Source: Escherichia coli
GTDB taxonomy: Bacteria; Pseudomonadota; Gammaproteobacteria; Enterobacterales; Enterobacteriaceae
NCBI RefSeq assembly: GCF_003018235.1
Contig: NZ_CP027437.1
Strand: one strand, 5' to 3'
DNA length: 64,000 bases
The position numbers and the translations under genes are program-made. Under the pieces are notes generated by a model. That model saw nothing but the letters and a program-made list of their open reading frames with translations, was not told where the DNA came from and searched no databases. Below are positions 1 through 10,134 of the stretch, in pieces (the stretch's first letter is position 1; each line of letters starts with the position of its first letter).

Positions 1-1733
1 GGTTATATTAAATATTCCGTCACTGGTCATTTGCAGGATAGTGTTCCCACAACTAAGAATTATGGAATCTCCCGCAGCAAGGCGTAAATTCTGTACGGCC
101 TGAATCGTTTTATTTTGTCCGGCAAGGGAGGTATCATCCATCTGAACTGTAAGAGAACGTTCCTCACCAATTATCGCTGTTTCTGTTTTATCAATGACTT
201 TAAGGCGATTATTGCCCACCCAGTGGCTTTCATTATTATTTACTTCAATCCGCTGATCTTTTTCGGCATGTAGCCAGACCTCTTCACCGCCAGGTTTATC
301 CTCAAAACGTAGTGCGTTGGCATTGGTTGGGCCGCCGCCGATAGTGTGACTGTAAAATCCGCTTTGCGTCGCTGCGCCCGGTAGTCCCCACGGTGGCATG
401 GTGTCCTGGTTGTAGGTACGCCCAACAATTATCGGTAAATCCGGATCACCGTTTTTGAAATCCACCAGTACTTCCTGACCAATGCGCGGGATCTGAATGC
501 CACCGAATCCTTTACCCGCCCACGGATAACTGACACGGACCCAGCAGGAACTATTTTCGTCATTCTTACCGTAACGATCCCAGCCAAACTGAACTTTCAC
601 CCGGCCATATTTATCTGTCCAGATTTCCTGCCCTGCCGGGCCGGTGACGATGGCGCTCTGCGGGCCTTTAGTGTGGGGTTTGCTCAGGGTTCGTTGTGGG
701 CGGTAAACTTCGCTGGTGGGATGCAGTTCAAAGCTGGTTGAGTAAGAGAAATGCTGCTCCTGGCCGCTGTGTTGCGCATTGTCCTGTATAAATAGCGTGG
801 TCTGTACCAGCAGATATTCCCGGTTCACTTCGGCTGTCGGATAGTTTTCCAGGATGAAGGTAAAACCTGTCATCAGGGTACGAATATTGCCGCTGCCCTG
901 TACCCGACTACCTGGGCTACGCTGTTCTTCCATGCGAATGCGTGTCAGCATTTCACCTTCACTCTTTGTGAAGTAATCTCCCGGCCATTCGTAGTGCTCA
1001 TATTCAGCAAGGCCGGTTTCACGCGGATTAGCCACGGTGCTCTTCAGCAGTGAACGCGGCTTCATAAAGTCGAAATCATTCAGCACCCACTGTCCACTGC
1101 GCAGACTTTCATTTGCTGTGATGGTATGGATAAACTCCTTGTCCAGTTTCAGCCCTTTCTGGTAATAACACACCAGCGGCGAATCTGCGCATGCCTTGTG
1201 GACATTAATGGCATCAGCCAGCACTAACGTGTGACTGTTCTCGCTGTGCTCAAACCACCAGTAGATACCCCACTCCTGCATCAGGCGCTGAACAAAATCG
1301 AAATCTGTTTCACCGTACTGCACCTGCCAGGCGCGAGTCGGATAATTTTCCACCAGTCGTTTTTCCACTGGCCAGGGGTACTCATCCAGTACCTCATCCA
1401 GGATCTCCACCACGTTTTTATTCTGAAACGCTTTGTAGTCACTAGTGTGGGTCAGTATTTTTAACCACGGTTCGAGCCGCAGTTCATACACCACCGAACG
1501 TCCTTGATGACCAGCCACGCGTGCCGCCGTCACCAGCCCGCTGATATAACGTTTTCCGCCGCCATCCAATTCGATATTGACGCACAGATCTTTGCCCACC
1601 ATCGGTTTGAGCTGCAGGTTGGCTGCGGGGGAAACATAGCCCAGGTTCAGGATGTCAGGAGTTTTTAATTTAATAGAATAAGTAAATAGTTCCCCTACTG
1701 TTTCTGTACCCCCTAAGCTTGCAAACAGTAACA
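1..1733 (-). pseudogene. vgrG: vgrG (T6SS spike protein), portion downstream of the IS3 insertion; continues beyond the window start
   Basis: Minus-strand frame is open from 1733 to position 1. Translation carries gp27-like motif [32 protein letters not shown] and the conserved [26 protein letters not shown] block. The apparent ATG at 1732-1734 is created by the IS3 terminus. Confidence 0.8.
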
Positions 1734-1763
1734 TGATCCTACCCACGTAATGTGGACACGGCC

Positions 1764-2618
1764 CTAAGCGAGATTATGGTTTTCAAATTGTTCCGGGCTG
1801 AGACCGCCACAGGCACTGTGACGACGCCAGCGATTGTAATCACTCTCGATATAATTAAACACCGTTGCCCGCATTATTTCCCGGCTGCTAAAGCGTTCCC
1901 CGTGGATACATTCCACCTTCAGCGAATGAAAGAAGCTTTCCACACAGGCATTGTCATAACAGTAGCCTTTCGCACTCATACTGCCACGCAGGTTGTGTCG
2001 CTTCAGCATTGCCTGATAATCCCCTGAACAGTATTGACCACCACGGTCCGTATGAACAATGACGTTTTCCGGGCGTCTTCTCCGCCACAACGCCATTTGC
2101 AGTGCATCACAGGCCAGTTGTGCTGTCATTCGCGGTGACATCGACCAGCCAATGACGGCGCGTGACCACAGGTCGATGACTACTGCGAGATACAACCAGC
2201 CCTCATCGGTACGCAAGTACGTGATGTCACCCGCCCACTTCTGGTTCGGGCCACTGGCGCTGAAGTCCTGCTCCAGCAGATTCTCCAATACGGGCAGGCC
2301 ATGTGCACGGTAGCTGACCGGGCTGAACTTCCGGCTGGCTTTCGCCCGCAGCCCCTGACGACGCAGGCTGGCGGCAATGGTTTTAATATTGAACTCCGGC
2401 AGTTCGTCAGCAAGGCGGGGAGCACCGTATCGCTGCTTTGCCTCAAAGAATGCCTTATGGACAGCGGCATCGCAGGTGAGCCGAAACTGTTGGCGCAGGC
2501 TCATCTGGTGACGACGCCTGAGCCAGACATACCAGCCGCTGCGGGCAACCCGAAGTACACGACACATCGCTTTGATGCTGAACTCTGCCCGATGATTTTC
2601 GATGAAGACATACTTCAT
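1764..2618 (-). CDS. insF: IS3 transposase OrfB (integrase/DDE catalytic part)
   Basis: 284-aa [25 protein letters not shown]... typical IS3 OrfB; overlaps orfA as expected for frameshift-fused OrfAB. Confidence 0.9.
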
Positions 2619-2914
2619 TTCAGGCGCTTCGCGAAGTATGTCGCGGCCTTTTGGAGGATGGCCAGTTCCTCAGCCTGCTCCGCCAGTTGTCGTTTAAGGC
2701 GGACATTTTCAGCGGCCAGTTCGCTTTCGCGCTCTGACGAACTCATTTGTTGCTGCTGTTTACTGCGCCAGGCATAAAGCTGAGATTCATACAGGCTGAG
2801 TTCACGGGCTGCGGCGGCCACACCGATGCGTTCAGCGAGTTTCAGGGCTTCGTTACGAAATTCAGGCGTATGTTGTTTACGGGGCTTCTTGCTGATTGAT
2901 ACTGGTTTTGTCAT
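2615..2914 (-). CDS. insE: IS3 transposase OrfA (HTH DNA-binding part)
   Basis: 99-aa [34 protein letters not shown]... matches IS3 OrfA. Confidence 0.9.
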
Positions 2915-2977
2915 GAGTCACCTCTGGTTGAGAGTTTACTCACTTAGTCCTGTGTCCACTATTGGTGGGTAAGATCA

Positions 2978-3074
2978 ACATTCCATCAGGAACTGCGCTG
3001 CCGCTCAAAGTCACGTTATGTGTACCCGATCCAGTTAGTGCGCCGGATGGATAATCTGTAGCTGCAAAACTCAT
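2978..3074 (-). pseudogene. vgrG: vgrG 5' fragment (codons 1-32) separated from the rest by IS3
   Basis: ATG at 3072-3074 (reverse strand) with AGGA Shine-Dalgarno; MSFAATDYPSGALTGSGTHNVTLSGSAVPDGM. Removing IS3 and one ACA copy joins it in frame to [16 protein letters not shown]... at 1731. Confidence 0.7.
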
Positions 3075-3295
3075 AATTAATCCTTTTAACTAGAAATGGA
3101 TAAGTGCTAATAAGAAATCTTACAGAGAATAAAATATGCAATATATTCGTAGCTGGCATAAAACATCTCAATACTTATGCGTGCTACTGAAGATACTATC
3201 AACCATATATGCCTTGAAGAATGCACCGTCATGTTAACCTGGTGGAAACATTCACCTAAAGTACATTAATAAAACTAATAAAATTATTTAATTTG

Positions 3296-3652
3296 TTATT
3301 TGATATGATTATCATCAAGTCTTAAAATACGTTCTCCGGTTCTAATTATGTTAAAACCATAGTATTCTTTTTTACTTTCGGAAGAGAGCATATATTTCCC
3401 GATATACATAACATCTGAAGATAGCTCACTTATATCAATACATACGGGTTCGAACTGACCTGTCACTCTTTTCAACTTTATTGCATTGCCATATTTACCT
3501 TCATATAAAACATAATTTGAAATAATATTCCCATCGTCTGGTTTTGAACAAATCTGTCCGTCTTGCAAATATACACTACCGGGTAACAATGGGCGAACAT
3601 AATCACCAACAGTGCATCCCGACAAAAAGAAAAACAAAAAGAATCTCTTCAT
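3296..3652 (-). CDS. small lipoprotein of unknown function (candidate immunity/inhibitor partner)
   Basis: 118-aa ORF with signal peptide and lipobox MKRFFLFFFLSGC; start codon overlaps stop of upstream gene (ATGA, 3649-3652); AT-rich codon usage. Confidence 0.6.
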   Translation of the reverse strand: MKRFFLFFFLSGCTVGDYVRPLLPGSVYLQDGQICSKPDDGNIISNYVLYEGKYGNAIKLKRVTGQFEPVCIDISELSSDVMYIGKYMLSSESKKEYYGFNIIRTGERILRLDDNHIK

Positions 3653-4179
3653 ATGACACCCGCAGGAAATAAATTAAGCACCTTTTTGTATTTTTCCGAT
3701 AGAGTGTTCACTGATTCAGTTGTATCACCTACATAGTTAACATTTGCCAAATCAGCCACCAGTCCATAGTTAATTAATAGCCAATAATCAGCAACTATAG
3801 ATGCTTGTTGTTCCATGGAATAAGAAGAAATTGACTGTAAATTAAGATCGTAATGATAATTTGCCGCCCAAGAAAATAAACCACGCAACTTAACTGCATA
3901 CCCTTTCTGATATTGCCAAACATGCATCATTTCATGAATAAACAAGTGAGAAGCACCTGCTACTGTTTCACGATCACCAGGCATTGCTTGCGATGAATAA
4001 TCTGAACTATAAACAGCATCAGGATAATACATTTCCCCGTTTGGGGTCATCGCTGTTCTTTCCCCTTGACCAGGCAAATATTTTTCATTGTGGATCCATA
4101 CCTTGCTATAATCAATTGTATTCTCAAAAATCGATCTGGCCAATGTTAATTCACCAGATGTCATTCTCCTTAATGACAT
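3649..4179 (-). CDS. zincin-like metallopeptidase-domain protein with HExxHxxQ motif (DUF4157-like)
   Basis: HEMMHVWQ encoded at 3922-3936. N-terminal LARSIFENTIDYSKVWIH...AMTPNG pattern resembles DUF4157. ATG at 4177-4179 is preceded by AGGGGA; six-frame track extends to a GTG at 4218. Confidence 0.55.
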   Translation of the reverse strand: MSLRRMTSGELTLARSIFENTIDYSKVWIHNEKYLPGQGERTAMTPNGEMYYPDAVYSSDYSSQAMPGDRETVAGASHLFIHEMMHVWQYQKGYAVKLRGLFSWAANYHYDLNLQSISSYSMEQQASIVADYWLLINYGLVADLANVNYVGDTTESVNTLSEKYKKVLNLFPAGVI

Positions 4180-5116
4180 ATCCTTTCCCCTGGAAATAAT
4201 ATCTTTCAGATAAAACACAAACGCCCTTTGATGTTCAATATTCCCACTTTATACAGTATTGATGACATCATATTCATAGAAAATAAAATCAAAGCAAGTT
4301 ATCAACGTTTCCCGTTATGATTTCTTAACATTAATTCTCAGCATTTTTATTAATCTATCTTCAATATCAATAACCGATGCAAATGATTACGCAGCTAACA
4401 TAATTCTCATCAATTGATTAATGTCTGTAAACGCTACCGCCCCACCCTGATATCTTAATCTGCACATAGCAATCTTAACGTTATGCCCCATACATTAGTA
4501 ATGTAAATTAAGAATTCGGAATATATCAAATTCACTTCATAAATTAATATCGGGAATGATATACACATTAATTATAATGAAGTAATGTTTTAAGAGTTGT
4601 AATGACCATGGAACAGGATTAATTCCAGAAGCTCCTGTTGGGCAATAGCGCGTTTATCATCCTACATGCCTCTTACATTTTTTAGCCTTTTCTTTAACGT
4701 CAGCAATTGGCTCATTTAATCAGCAATTGTATTGGTATTTGGCGTATTACCCCTGAAACCCGTCATGTGCTAGCACCTCACTATTCAATGAGCCAACCAC
4801 GCCAGTGTCCACTGCAACCACTGGCGTTCAGAGCGACGAACGAGTGGCGCAAGAGTAAGACTGCCGTCGGGCATCATCAAACCAATAGTGGTTGTTTCCG
4901 TCAAAATTTCATCAGGTTGCTATTTTGTTGCCGGCCGCCTTTATCCCCACATATTTATAGCGGGATTATTTTGCATCGTTACACGATAAAAGGTAGGATT
5001 CTGCGCCGACAGTTATACCCATAAAGAATAATGGTGAATCTTGTCATCGCCAGGATGAATAAACATTGTTCATGGCAACTTATATGACTTTTTCATTAAA
5101 GCAATCAGGGAGAGCA

Positions 5117-6616
5117 ATGAGTAAACACGACACCGACACTTCAGATCAACACGCCGCGAAACGCCGCTGGCTTAATGCCCACGAAGAGGGGTATCACAAA
5201 GCGATGGGCAATCGCCAGGTACAGATGATCGCCATTGGCGGCGCGATTGGTACGGGTTTGTTTTTAGGCGCGGGAGCCCGACTGCAAATGGCGGGGCCAG
5301 CACTGGCACTGGTCTATTTGATCTGCGGCCTGTTTTCATTTTTTATTCTGCGTGCATTGGGTGAGCTGGTGTTACACCGCCCTTCCAGTGGCAGTTTTGT
5401 CTCTTATGCCCGTGAGTTTTTAGGAGAGAAAGCCGCTTACGTTGCAGGCTGGATGTACTTCATCAACTGGGCGATGACGGGGATTGTCGATATTACCGCC
5501 GTCGCTCTGTATATGCATTACTGGGGTGCGTTTGGCGGCGTGCCGCAGTGGGTCTTTGCGCTCGCTGCGCTGACCATCGTTGGCACCATGAATATGATCG
5601 GTGTGAAATGGTTTGCCGAGATGGAGTTCTGGTTTGCGCTTATTAAAGTGCTCGCCATTGTTACCTTTTTGGTCGTGGGTACAGTGTTCCTCGGTAGTGG
5701 TCAGCCGCTGGATGGCAACACCACTGGTTTTCATTTAATTACCGATAACGGCGGCTTCTTCCCCCACGGTTTGCTGCCTGCGCTGGTGTTGATTCAGGGC
5801 GTAGTGTTTGCTTTTGCCTCCATTGAAATGGTGGGTACAGCTGCCGGAGAATGTAAAGATCCGCAGACCATGGTGCCTAAAGCCATTAACAGTGTGATTT
5901 GGCGTATTGGCCTGTTTTACGTCGGCTCCGTGGTGTTGCTGGTTATGTTATTGCCGTGGAGCGCATATCAGGCGGGGCAAAGTCCGTTCGTGACGTTTTT
6001 CTCTAAACTGGGTGTGCCATATATCGGCAGCATTATGAACATTGTGGTGCTGACCGCTGCCCTCTCCAGCCTGAACTCAGGTCTGTACTGCACCGGACGT
6101 ATTCTGCGCTCAATGGCGATGGGCGGTTCCGCACCGAGTTTTATGGCGAAAATGAGTCGTCAGCATGTGCCGTATGCCGGGATTCTGGCGACACTGGTTG
6201 TGTATGTCGTCGGCGTATTCCTCAACTATCTGGTGCCGTCGCGCGTATTTGAGATTGTGTTGAACTTCGCGTCGCTGGGAATCATCGCCTCATGGGCGTT
6301 TATCATCGTGTGCCAGATGCGCCTGCGTAAAGCGATTAAAGAAGGCAAAGCCGCGGATGTCAGTTTTAAACTGCCTGGCGCGCCCTTCACTTCCTGGCTG
6401 ACATTACTGTTTTTGCTGAGCGTCCTGGTGCTGATGGCGTTCGATTACCCGAACGGGACTTATACCATCGCGGCGCTGCCGATTATCGGTATTCTGCTGG
6501 TTATAGGCTGGTTTGGTGTGCGCAAACGCGTTGCTGAAATTCACAGCACTGCGCCAGTCGTCGAGGAAGATGAAGAACAACAGGAAATTGTGTTTAAGCC
6601 TGAAACGGCGAGTTAA
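5117..6616 (+). CDS. ansP: L-asparagine permease (APC family amino acid transporter)
   Basis: 499 aa from ATG 5117 (MSKHDTDTSDQ...); multi-TM amino acid permease; track ORF starts 17 codons upstream. Confidence 0.9.
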   Translation: MSKHDTDTSDQHAAKRRWLNAHEEGYHKAMGNRQVQMIAIGGAIGTGLFLGAGARLQMAGPALALVYLICGLFSFFILRALGELVLHRPSSGSFVSYAREFLGEKAAYVAGWMYFINWAMTGIVDITAVALYMHYWGAFGGVPQWVFALAALTIVGTMNMIGVKWFAEMEFWFALIKVLAIVTFLVVGTVFLGSGQPLDGNTTGFHLITDNGGFFPHGLLPALVLIQGVVFAFASIEMVGTAAGECKDPQTMVPKAINSVIWRIGLFYVGSVVLLVMLLPWSAYQAGQSPFVTFFSKLGVPYIGSIMNIVVLTAALSSLNSGLYCTGRILRSMAMGGSAPSFMAKMSRQHVPYAGILATLVVYVVGVFLNYLVPSRVFEIVLNFASLGIIASWAFIIVCQMRLRKAIKEGKAADVSFKLPGAPFTSWLTLLFLLSVLVLMAFDYPNGTYTIAALPIIGILLVIGWFGVRKRVAEIHSTAPVVEEDEEQQEIVFKPETAS

Positions 6617-6624
6617 TTGCAAAA

Positions 6625-6647
6625 TTGCCCGGCTACGTGCCGGGCAA
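6625..6647. terminator. bidirectional rho-independent terminator hairpin between ansP and yncE
   Basis: TTGCCCGGC-TACGT-GCCGGGCAA with A-run upstream. Confidence 0.6.
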
Positions 6648-6728
6648 ATTCAAATTACTGACGAAGGTGCCGGATACGGCGTGATAAAAGTCAGGCAAGT
6701 CTCACCGTTTTCACCCTCGCCATATCTA

Positions 6729-7790
6729 TTACAGCGCAATACGAATCACATCATCCGGCTGGGTTGCTTCCTGCTGTTTAGTGGATTTTTGTTTCACACT
6801 GACATACAGCGTTTTACCATCGGCAGACAGCGCCAGGCTGTTCGGATGAGTCGGCGTATCGAACGTTTTCACCACTTTATAGCTTTTCGCGTCAATCACA
6901 CTGACTTTACCTGCCTGACGATGCGTTACGTAGGCTTCATTACGCGCCGGGTTAAACAGCACAGCCAGTGATTCCGGTGCCGCAACCTTCGCCAGAATAT
7001 TGCCATTACGGGTATCGACCACTAACACTTCTGCGGCTTTAGAATCGGTGATAAATGCACGCTGCCTGGCGGTATCAAGGCTAATGTTGATAAAGAAGTG
7101 CTCTTTGCCGTCATCCAGCAGCTTTTTACGGCTGAGGATTTTATTGTCGGCGGTGTCGATGGTAATCAATTCGCCGTCAGCGTTAGTGGTGTAAAGACGT
7201 TTGCCTTTGCTATCCAGCGCCAGACCGGTACTCATTTTACCGGTGTTCTGGATGGCGGTTTTCAGTTTGATATTCTCGCCATCAACGACCCAAATCACGC
7301 TCTCTTTACCAATACCACTGATGTAAACGGTGTTCGTGGCATCATCAGCTACCAGCTCACGCGGTTGCAGCGGGCGCACCTCTTCCGTGCGCTTACGATC
7401 ATCCAGCACCAGACGGCCTTTCACTTCGCCCGTTTTGGCATCTATCGCCGTGACCGCGCTGTTTACAGTGTTACCAAACCACAACGTCTGAGTCGTGTTA
7501 TTGATGGTGGCACCAAACGGCTTGAGATCGTTATGGATCGCCTGCGTCACTTCCAGAGTAACCGGATCAAGACGATAAACCACGCCGCCTTTATCCAGTT
7601 TGCGGCTTTGCGAAGTGGCGAGCCACAGCGCGTTCTCCTGCTGGCTATAAGCCATTTCGTAGGCACCTTTACCTACCGCTTTACGCAGCATTTCTTCTGC
7701 AGCCTGCGTACTGAATGATGAAGCAACAAGCAATGAACCTAACAGTAATGAACCACGCAGGCGCGATGAAAACAGATGACGTAAATGCAT
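6729..7790 (-). CDS. yncE: YncE, beta-propeller protein with signal peptide
   Basis: 353-aa ORF MHLRHLFSSRLRGSLLLGSLLVASSFSTQAAE... Confidence 0.9.
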   Translation of the reverse strand: MHLRHLFSSRLRGSLLLGSLLVASSFSTQAAEEMLRKAVGKGAYEMAYSQQENALWLATSQSRKLDKGGVVYRLDPVTLEVTQAIHNDLKPFGATINNTTQTLWFGNTVNSAVTAIDAKTGEVKGRLVLDDRKRTEEVRPLQPRELVADDATNTVYISGIGKESVIWVVDGENIKLKTAIQNTGKMSTGLALDSKGKRLYTTNADGELITIDTADNKILSRKKLLDDGKEHFFINISLDTARQRAFITDSKAAEVLVVDTRNGNILAKVAAPESLAVLFNPARNEAYVTHRQAGKVSVIDAKSYKVVKTFDTPTHPNSLALSADGKTLYVSVKQKSTKQQEATQPDDVIRIAL

Positions 7791-7873
7791 GACGACTCCC
7801 TTTGATGAACCGATATTTTTGCTGCTTCACAATGCTTCGCTAAGCGTAATCATCGTTACGCTCTTGTTATAAA

Positions 7874-7892
7874 TGGGAATGGTAATCATTAT
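7874..7892. promoter_or_regulatory. candidate Fur box in the yncE/yncD divergent promoter region
   Basis: TGGGAATGGTAATCATTAT resembles the Fur consensus GATAATGATAATCATTATC; yncD encodes a TonB-dependent receptor. Confidence 0.4.
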
Positions 7893-8031
7893 TTTCTCAA
7901 ATGTGGAGCATTTCTTGCCGTTACGACTACAATTTTCTCAATTACTTAACGTATCGTGCCGTTTCGTTTTCCATATATTTACAATTTTATTACCATGGCG
8001 GCGTTTTCCCATTCTTAACCTGGCTTTTTTC

Positions 8032-10134
8032 ATGAAGATTTTTTCCGTCCGACAGACCGTTTTGCCCGCACTGCTTGTCCTTTCCCCCGTTGTTTTTGCC
8101 GCTGATGAACAGACCATGATTGTCAGTGCCGCACCGCAGGTGGTTTCAGAACTGGATACCCCAGCAGCCGTGAGCGTGGTGGATGGCGAGGAGATGCGCC
8201 TGGCAACACCGCGCATTAACTTGTCCGAATCACTGACCAGCGTGCCTGGTTTGCAGGTACAAAACCGGCAGAACTATGCGCAAGATTTACAGCTGTCGAT
8301 TCGCGGATTTGGCTCCCGCTCCACTTACGGAATTCGCGGTATTCGCCTGTATGTGGACGGTATTCCCGCCACCATGCCCGACGGACAAGGGCAAACATCC
8401 AACATCGATTTAAGCAGTGTACAAAATGTGGAAGTGCTGCGCGGCCCCTTCTCTGCTCTGTATGGCAACGCGTCTGGCGGTGTAATGAATGTCATCACCC
8501 AGACCGGACAACAGCCACCAACCATTGAAGCCAGTAGTTACTACGGCAGTTTTGGCAGCTGGCGCTATGGGCTGAAAGCAACAGGCGCAATGGGCGACGG
8601 CACTCAGCCTGGCGATGTCGATTACACCGTCTCAACCACGCGCTTTACGACCCACGGCTATCGTGATCATAGTGGCGCACAGAAAAATTTAGCCAATGCC
8701 AAACTGGGCGTACGCATTGATGACGCCAGCAAATTAAGCCTGATTTTCAATAGTGTGGATATCAAAGCAGATGACCCAGGTGGGCTAACCGAAGCAGAAT
8801 GGAAGGCGAATCCGCAACAAGCGCCACGCGCTGAACAGTACGACACGCGAAAAACCATCAAGCAAACTCAGGCTGGGTTGCGCTATGAACGTAGCCTGAG
8901 CGCACAAGATGATATGAGTGTGATGATGTATGCCGGGGAGCGAGAAACGACCCAGTACCAGTCAATCCCGATGGCACCACAACTTAACCCGTCGCATGCG
9001 GGCGGCGTGATTACTCTGCAACGCCATTATCAGGGGATAGACAGCCGCTGGACACACCGTGGCGAGCTGGGCGTTCCGCTCACGTTCACTACCGGCCTGA
9101 ACTACGAAAACATGAGTGAAAATCGCAAAGGCTACAATAACTTCCGCCTGAATAGCGGCGTGCCGGAATACGGGCAAAAAGGTGAGTTGCGCCGTGACGA
9201 ACGCAATCTGATGTGGAACGTCGATCCCTATTTGCAGACACAGTGGCAGCTGAGCGAAAAACTGTCGCTGGATGCTGGCGTGCGCTACAGCTCCGTATGG
9301 TTTGATTCCAACGACCATTACGTTACTCCGGGTAACGGCGATGACAGCGGTGATGCCAGTTATCACAAATGGCTACCTGCCGGTTCGTTAAAATATGCAA
9401 TGACCGATGCCTGGAATATCTATCTGGCAGCCGGGCGAGGTTTTGAAACGCCGACGATTAATGAGCTGTCTTATCGTGCTGACGGTCAAAGCGGTATGAA
9501 CTTTGGTTTAAAACCATCCACCAACGATACAATTGAGATCGGCAGTAAAACGCGTATTGGTGATGGGCTGCTTAGTCTCGCATTGTTCCAGACCGACACC
9601 GATGATGAAATTGTTGTCGATAGCAGTAGCGGTGGGCGTACGACTTACAAAAATGCCGGAAAGACCCGTCGTCAAGGCGCTGAGCTGGCATGGGATCAAC
9701 GTTTCGCGGGAGATTTTCGTGTAAAAGCGTCCTGGACCTGGCTCGATGCGACCTATCGCAGCAATGTTTGCAATGAACAGGATTGTAACGGTAACCGGAT
9801 GCCAGGGATCGCCCGTAATATGGGCTTTGCGTCGATAGGTTATGTACCGGAGGATGGCTGGTATGCAGGTACGGAAGCGCGTTATATGGGCGATATTATG
9901 GCAGATGATGAAAATACGGCCAAAGCGCCGTCTTATACTCTCGTCGGCTTATTCACCGGGTATAAATACAATTACCACAATTTAACTGTGGATTTATTTG
10001 GTCGTGTCGATAATTTATTCGATAAAGAATACGTTGGTTCTGTCATTGTCAATGAGTCAAACGGGCGATATTACGAACCTGCGCCCGGGCGAAATTATGG
10101 TGTCGGCATGAATATTGCATGGCGATTTGAGTAA
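8032..10134 (+). CDS. yncD: TonB-dependent outer membrane receptor
   Basis: 700 aa from ATG 8032 (MKIFSVRQTVLPALLVLSPVVFAADEQ); C-terminal ...AWRFE typical TonB-dependent receptor terminus. Confidence 0.9.
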   Translation: MKIFSVRQTVLPALLVLSPVVFAADEQTMIVSAAPQVVSELDTPAAVSVVDGEEMRLATPRINLSESLTSVPGLQVQNRQNYAQDLQLSIRGFGSRSTYGIRGIRLYVDGIPATMPDGQGQTSNIDLSSVQNVEVLRGPFSALYGNASGGVMNVITQTGQQPPTIEASSYYGSFGSWRYGLKATGAMGDGTQPGDVDYTVSTTRFTTHGYRDHSGAQKNLANAKLGVRIDDASKLSLIFNSVDIKADDPGGLTEAEWKANPQQAPRAEQYDTRKTIKQTQAGLRYERSLSAQDDMSVMMYAGERETTQYQSIPMAPQLNPSHAGGVITLQRHYQGIDSRWTHRGELGVPLTFTTGLNYENMSENRKGYNNFRLNSGVPEYGQKGELRRDERNLMWNVDPYLQTQWQLSEKLSLDAGVRYSSVWFDSNDHYVTPGNGDDSGDASYHKWLPAGSLKYAMTDAWNIYLAAGRGFETPTINELSYRADGQSGMNFGLKPSTNDTIEIGSKTRIGDGLLSLALFQTDTDDEIVVDSSSGGRTTYKNAGKTRRQGAELAWDQRFAGDFRVKASWTWLDATYRSNVCNEQDCNGNRMPGIARNMGFASIGYVPEDGWYAGTEARYMGDIMADDENTAKAPSYTLVGLFTGYKYNYHNLTVDLFGRVDNLFDKEYVGSVIVNESNGRYYEPAPGRNYGVGMNIAWRFE

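Follow-up and report, generated by a model that had tools for sequence, protein, structure and literature searches.

An ISEc16 insertion in vgrG of Escherichia coli and the restored Met32 codon at its downstream junction

The vgrG locus and the inserted element

At the beginning of the window (the whole 64,000-nt stretch of Escherichia coli DNA that was analysed), a vgrG gene lies on the minus strand and is broken by a 1244-bp insertion sequence after 32 codons and one base. The coordinates of the features are collected in Table 1. The start of the gene is the ATG annotated by RefSeq for the intact 664-amino-acid gene of E. coli O169:H41 (6327-8321). The protein of the intact allele scores 557 bits on the TIGR03361 profile (cut-off 186) and also contains the Phage_GPD, Phage_base_V, and Gp5_trimer_C domains, as expected for VgrG (TssI); the copy in the window is split by the element.

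The window ends inside vgrG, and the downstream module was read from intact alleles. In these, vgrG is followed by a DcrB-related gene (Eag-type chaperone), a large PAAR/RHS toxin gene, and a small ORF, all on one strand and separated by short gaps. This vgrG-chaperone-rhs arrangement matches the prePAAR-Rhs type of module described in PMC7773334. The disrupted gene would head an ansP-linked module composed of vgrG, an Eag-type (DcrB-family) chaperone, an Rhs toxin, and an immunity gene.

Table 1. Features of the disrupted vgrG locus, with positions given in window coordinates.
Feature	Position	Strand	Basis or measure
vgrG 3′ part: codons 33-609 and the TG of the rebuilt Met32 codon; runs past the window start	1..1733	-	577/578 identity, Pfam domains
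Target-site duplication, downstream copy (TGT on the gene strand)	1731..1733	.	empty site with one TGT
Junction ATG, the native Met32 codon: 1734 is the final A of ISEc16, 1733-1732 the TG of the target duplication	1732..1734	-	empty-site comparison
ISEc16 (IS3 family), 1244 bp, co-oriented with vgrG; left inverted repeat at 2977, right at 1734	1734..2977	-	99.4% identity
Shine-Dalgarno-like GGGUAGG of the right inverted repeat, separated from the ATG by 3 nt	1738..1744	-	predicted duplex of -6.4 kcal/mol with ACCUCCUUA (16S 3′ end)
Predicted hairpin UGUCCAC-AUUAC-GUGGGUA in the right inverted repeat, overlapping the Shine-Dalgarno-like bases	1740..1758	-	-6.4 kcal/mol
ISEc16 orfB, DDE/rve part of the transposase, 284 aa from its ATG	1764..2618	-	profile matches
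Best outward promoter-like pair, TTTAAT-15 nt-TACAAT, 8/12	1859..1833	-	relaxed scan; same boxes as IS3 right-end hotspots 14/15 (PMC12095673)
ISEc16 orfA, 99 aa, A-AAA-G slippery motif near the 3′ end	2615..2914	-	ORF list; PGAP "programmed frameshift" in ISEc16 copies
Remnant ORF, 44 aa: VgrG codons 1-32 and 12 element-encoded codons, then stop	2940..3074	-	start identical to that of the intact gene
Target-site duplication, upstream copy (TGT on the gene strand)	2978..2980	.	empty-site comparison

The transposase genes of the element run in the direction of vgrG, and it is therefore the right inverted repeat that adjoins the 3′ part of the gene. Over its full length (1-1244), the element is 99.4% identical to copies annotated as "IS3-like element ISEc16 family transposase" in E. 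coli chromosomes and plasmids, above the nucleotide identity of >95% that was used for assignment to a named element at the isoform level. An earlier note on this DNA had called it IS3; however, the identity to K-12 IS3 is 81.6%, and the name has to be amended to ISEc16. Between the inverted repeats, 29 of 40 positions are identical, and the ends, TGATCTTACCCAC... and ...GTGGGTAGGATCA, have the TG...CA termini that are also found in other copies. The transposase ORFs give HTH_Tnp_1 and rve matches, OrfB scores 322.9 bits on NF033516 (transpos_IS3), and a CAAAAGG slippery motif is located in the overlap between orfA and orfB. The sequence identity, the overlapping HTH OrfA and DDE OrfB in the -1 frame, the TG...CA termini, and the 3-bp duplication, within the 3-4 bp required, all identify the element as an ISEc16 of the IS3 family.

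With the known ISEc16 (PGAP-annotated in E. coli and E. marmotae), the element shares the length of 1244 bp, the orfA/orfB -1 frameshift, the imperfect inverted repeats of ~40 bp, and the 3-bp duplication, and it differs from the known copies in the insertion site only, which is codon 32/33 of vgrG. ISEc16 is an IS3-family element and moves by copy-out/paste-in. Three other ISEc16 copies that were inspected are not flanked by a 3-bp direct repeat (ccg/agt, aat/aaa), suggesting later rearrangement or recombination between copies, while the duplication at the window copy is perfect.

Reading frame at the junction and distribution of the insertion

On either side of the element, a 3-bp duplication is found that reads ACA on the plus strand. 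The empty site in the E. coli O169:H41 allele is ...cct gat gga ATG tta ctg ttt..., with a single TGT inside ggaATGTta. In the window, plus-strand positions 1732-1734 are C-A-T, giving a minus-strand ATG (1734..1732), and T1734 is the terminal base of the element, whose ends TGATC...GGATCA match those of other copies in other contexts. Insertion of an element ending in ...CA into the target A-TGT-TA, with duplication of TGT, would lead to just such a junction: the last base of the element, an A, stands in for the native A, and the sequence again becomes ATG TTA. The junction ATG is thus the host gene's own Met32 codon restored, and not a new codon. The earlier note had described an in-frame ATG that arises from T1734, and this codon is indeed present and in frame, but it was not "created" by the insertion, since the empty site already reads ATG. 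It follows that a restart product would be without 31 residues, with Met32 kept, rather than without the first 32 as had been stated there.

The frame of the junction ATG is open for 578 codons, up to the edge of the window, and its translation is identical to residues 32-609 of the intact 664-residue VgrG (WP_085458717.1) at 577 of the 578 positions. The stop codon of orfB lies 29 nt upstream of the ATG, and an in-frame stop is found 13 codons upstream. The only alternative in-frame start upstream, a GTG at 1746..1744, was rejected, its Shine-Dalgarno pairing being weak (-3.7 kcal/mol). The outcome of the insertion would be the 44-residue remnant ORF upstream of the element and a promoterless 3′ part of vgrG downstream of it.

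NTG codons make up 65 of the 664 codons of intact vgrG, such that an in-frame A followed by TG is expected at 3.3% of the possible insertion points. As any in-frame NTG codon hit in the same register yields an ATG, the coincidence is a mild one. The Met32 position is occupied by V, A, or L in homologues and is consequently not conserved as an alternative start. The target sequence produced the junction ATG as a by-product, and the codon is not a device. More generally, where an insertion seems to have "created" a start codon at an IS junction, the target-site duplication can simply have restored a codon that the host gene already had.

The element was found at vgrG codon 32/33 in none of the 5,426 complete E. 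coli genomes, many of which contain the uninterrupted gene at 99.0-99.9% identity; the flanks of the insertion are 99.9% identical to intact alleles. The exact 36-nt junction has no match in the GTDB representative genomes, and an exact-sequence look-up of the 44-residue remnant ORF gave no record. The same type of look-up with the reconstructed 633-residue Met32 product returned two records. One belongs to the draft assembly GCA_012810615.1, which carries the same insertion, with 1 mismatch to the window in 11,734 nt, and in which the gene caller chose exactly the junction ATG as the start. The other, GCA_012320005.1 (AASEVB010000061.1, 1-1957), was considered as a second insertion and rejected, because the allele is intact; its contig begins inside codons 13-31, and the gene caller therefore fell back on Met32, an artefact that mimics the truncation. 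Gene callers readily annotate such restarts as full genes, the 633-residue product being recorded once from an insertion and once from a contig end.

The insertion is confined to one known lineage. The target duplication has stayed intact, and no further lesions are found in the 3′ part of vgrG; the insertion is therefore recent, and the locus would be best explained by a recent, strain-specific transposition of ISEc16 into codon 32/33 of vgrG.

It can be mentioned here that the 25 kb adjoining vgrG (ansP to ydcO, window 3100-28000) have a best identity of 98.7% among the 5,426 complete E. coli genomes, and of ~97% to most of them. The vgrG flanks (window 1-3400) are, unlike this region, 99.9% identical to the O169:H41 strain. 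This contrast in identity points to a lineage that is poorly represented and in which the vgrG island has been recombined or exchanged horizontally.

Translation and transcription signals at the right end of ISEc16

One reading of the junction is that useful amounts of VgrG without residues 1-31 are made through outward transcription and initiation at the junction ATG, and that this protein assembles into the spike and carries the Rhs toxin. We regard this as highly improbable, for reasons that concern translation, transcription, and the protein itself. In its favor are the intact ORF with all Pfam domains kept, the choice of the junction start by a gene caller, and the predicted Shine-Dalgarno-like pairing. 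The latter amounts to -6.4 kcal/mol for the junction ATG in the window, compared to -5.4 kcal/mol for the true vgrG start and -2.4 kcal/mol for Met32 in its native context. The pairing at the junction is stronger than at 94% of the window ATGs, only 6% of them matching or exceeding it. Among the 48 annotated genes of the syntenic region, however, 42% have an equal or stronger pairing, so that the strength at the junction is ordinary, about the median.

The 20 nt upstream of the junction ATG consist of inverted-repeat sequence throughout. A functional start was taken to have a Shine-Dalgarno spacing of 5-9 nt, an accessible context, and evidence of initiation. The gap of 3 nt at the junction is rare, being found at so short a length in only 2 of the 34 local genes with a strong Shine-Dalgarno sequence. 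Moreover, the mean probability of being unpaired is 0.18 for the Shine-Dalgarno region, against 0.36 at the native start, with the GGG located in the 3′ arm of the predicted hairpin. On the basis of the predicted signals, translation from the junction ATG looks feasible, while the short gap and the modeled hairpin weigh against its efficient use. As to the activity of a ribosome-binding site, on which the earlier note had made its proposal conditional, the GGGUAGG motif supports it, whereas the spacing and the hairpin do not.

The Shine-Dalgarno-like bases are identical in IS3; the right ends of this group thus generally combine this sequence with the terminal A. A far-reaching proposal can be built on this, namely that the right ends of ISEc16 and IS3 (...GGGTAGGATCA) constitute a portable translation-initiation cassette, in which a weak internal outward promoter and a Shine-Dalgarno-like sequence are combined with the initial A of an ATG. 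The downstream frame would then be restarted by any insertion in front of a TG, and the VgrG without residues 1-31 would be made here and be biologically relevant, be it that it functions in the spike or that, as a poison subunit, it silences the Rhs module. Taken as a whole, we find this proposal extremely improbable.

Transcription is the weak point for any restart product. A consensus scan of positions 1400-3400 gave no minus-strand promoter-like site of at least 9/12, and no intrinsic terminator was predicted in the same region. A complete outward promoter was defined as one with both hexamers inside the element, at ~150 bp or less from its end, and with demonstrated activity. The best outward candidate, the 8/12 pair listed in Table 1, emerged from a relaxed scan, and the same TTTAAT-15-TACAAT pair has been described in the right end of IS3 (PMC12095673). 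It is common to the two elements, whose right inverted repeats are nearly identical over the last 30 bp, including GGGTAGGATCA. ISEc16 is, on the other hand, only ~82% identical to IS3 overall, and the reporter data discussed below were obtained with IS3.

In these reporter assays, the wild-type 150-bp ends of IS3 had no detectable promoter activity (Fuqua and Wagner 2025, PMC12095673), and in the IS3 backbone only promoters within 150 bp of the end drove detectable downstream expression (PMC12095673). Furthermore, the terminal 50 bp at the right end of IS3 reduced the expression roughly by half, probably via a pause/rut element (PMC12095673). The inactivity of the wild-type right end and the presence of this repressing element argue against useful amounts of the truncated VgrG. 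A point in favor is an older report, as cited in PMC12095673, of IS3 as a "mobile promoter" acting from its right end with TTGGTG ... CAATTT (Charlier, Piette and Glansdorff 1982). However, the -35 TTGGTG of that promoter reads TGCCTG in ISEc16, and the -35 element is thus lost.

The terminal 21 bp of ISEc16 and IS3 are identical. Over the last 50 bp (1734-1783, minus strand, in ISEc16 and 1306-1355 in IS3), 6 differences are found, located in the stretch that is reported to repress outward transcription in IS3.

We have also considered a hybrid promoter with the -35 element in the IS end and the -10 element in the flank, an option that the earlier note had put forward; to serve the codon, it would need a consensus-like -35, a -10 at the proper spacing, and a start of transcription that precedes the start codon. 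For the IS3-family elements IS911 and IS2, hybrid or junction promoters are known in which the right inverted repeat contributes the outward -35, while the -10 comes either from the flank or from the left inverted repeat (PMC9330008). The family and the element end that faces the downstream gene are the same as in the present case (PMC9330008). However, the junction-spanning pairs found here reach only 7/12, with the -10 hexamers ending at 1733 and 1730. With a -10 at or past the junction ATG, the transcript would start downstream of this codon and could not serve it, so that such promoters cannot explain its use and the option has to be discarded.

Any transcript that crosses the right inverted repeat would carry GGGUAGG, through which ribosomes could initiate at Met32 at a low level. 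A transcript of this kind might come from read-through of the vgrG operon, from the transposase promoter, or from the weak internal TTTAAT/TACAAT pair. Read-through from the operon or from the transposase promoter is possible, the element being co-oriented and without a predicted terminator. The 150-bp limit found for promoters in the IS3 backbone, together with the largely untranslated orfB region, where Rho-dependent termination would be expected to act, argues for a strong polarity. The requirement of the earlier note for a promoter that reads out of the element is, accordingly, answered only in part: there is an 8/12 pair inside the element and no predicted terminator, but there is no site of at least 9/12, and the homologous IS3 end is inactive.

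The truncated VgrG and the downstream genes

According to Pfam, the truncated product would keep the whole of the Phage_GPD domain (which begins at residue 41 of the intact protein), Phage_base_V (the OB domain), and Gp5_trimer_C. The alignment of the intact protein to TIGR03361 starts at residue 30, at profile position 9, and profile positions 1 to about 10 are lost by the truncation. Among the solved VgrGs, 9mlp_A is the closest; it aligns over residues 10-615, with HNVTLSGSAVPDG almost unchanged, and the solved VgrG 8qja aligns from residue 15. Met32 corresponds approximately to residue 17 of P. aeruginosa VgrG1. The solved T6SS VgrG structures (9mlp, 7q5p, 4mtk/4uhv, and 8qja) all have the N-terminal segment, in contrast to the putative restart product, whose gp27-like N-terminus is incomplete.

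As judged from these alignments, folding or the assembly of trimers is probably impaired when the conserved N-terminal segment is missing, although a folded product is possible in view of the Phage_GPD domain being kept as a whole. The conservation of the deleted residues 10-31 in the closest solved homologue is a further argument against a useful truncated VgrG. The same loss, combined with the translation signals at the junction (GGGUAGG), would fit a low-level production of a truncated VgrG that is misfolded or acts as a poison subunit of VgrG trimers, and that is neutral or mildly harmful rather than useful. This alternative would also require transcription, which is doubtful given the lack of a site of at least 9/12 and the inactive IS3 end, and we consider it unlikely.

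The proposal of the earlier note that a truncated VgrG could still be made therefore holds as far as the prerequisites for translation are concerned, but it lacks a convincing source of transcription, and the protein would lose its conserved N-terminus. A product without residues 1-31 is possible, but it would be scarce and probably defective. We conclude that vgrG is most probably a disrupted gene, with a junction ATG that is coincidental and that gives at most a trace product. The case is one of ordinary recent pseudogenisation by an IS. Were a truncated VgrG made and active, the first ~31 residues of VgrG would be dispensable and the ends of the IS3 group could donate translation signals; neither of these is made likely by the present evidence.

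A different view of the locus is that the genes downstream of vgrG matter instead of VgrG itself, either because the insertion exerts a polar effect on the genes for the Eag-type chaperone, Rhs, and immunity, or because read-through or outward transcription keeps the immunity gene expressed. The intact locus, in which vgrG, the DcrB-related gene, rhs, and the small ORF follow one another closely on one strand, is consistent with this, as are the co-orientation of the element and the absence of a predicted intrinsic terminator in it. Immunity genes, however, often have promoters of their own, and we hold this view to be less likely than not. With vgrG disrupted, delivery of the Rhs toxin would be expected to fail unless a different VgrG takes over.

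Directly upstream of vgrG, on the same strand, there are two ORFs that are annotated as hypothetical in RefSeq. The first (3296-3652, minus strand) encodes 118 residues with a lipoprotein-like N-terminus (MKRFFLFFFLSGC). The second (3649-4218, minus strand) overlaps the first and encodes 189 residues (annotated elsewhere with 176) that include a HEMMH zinc-peptidase-like motif. A Pfam search of the two proteins gave no hits. The two ORFs may constitute an effector/immunity pair.
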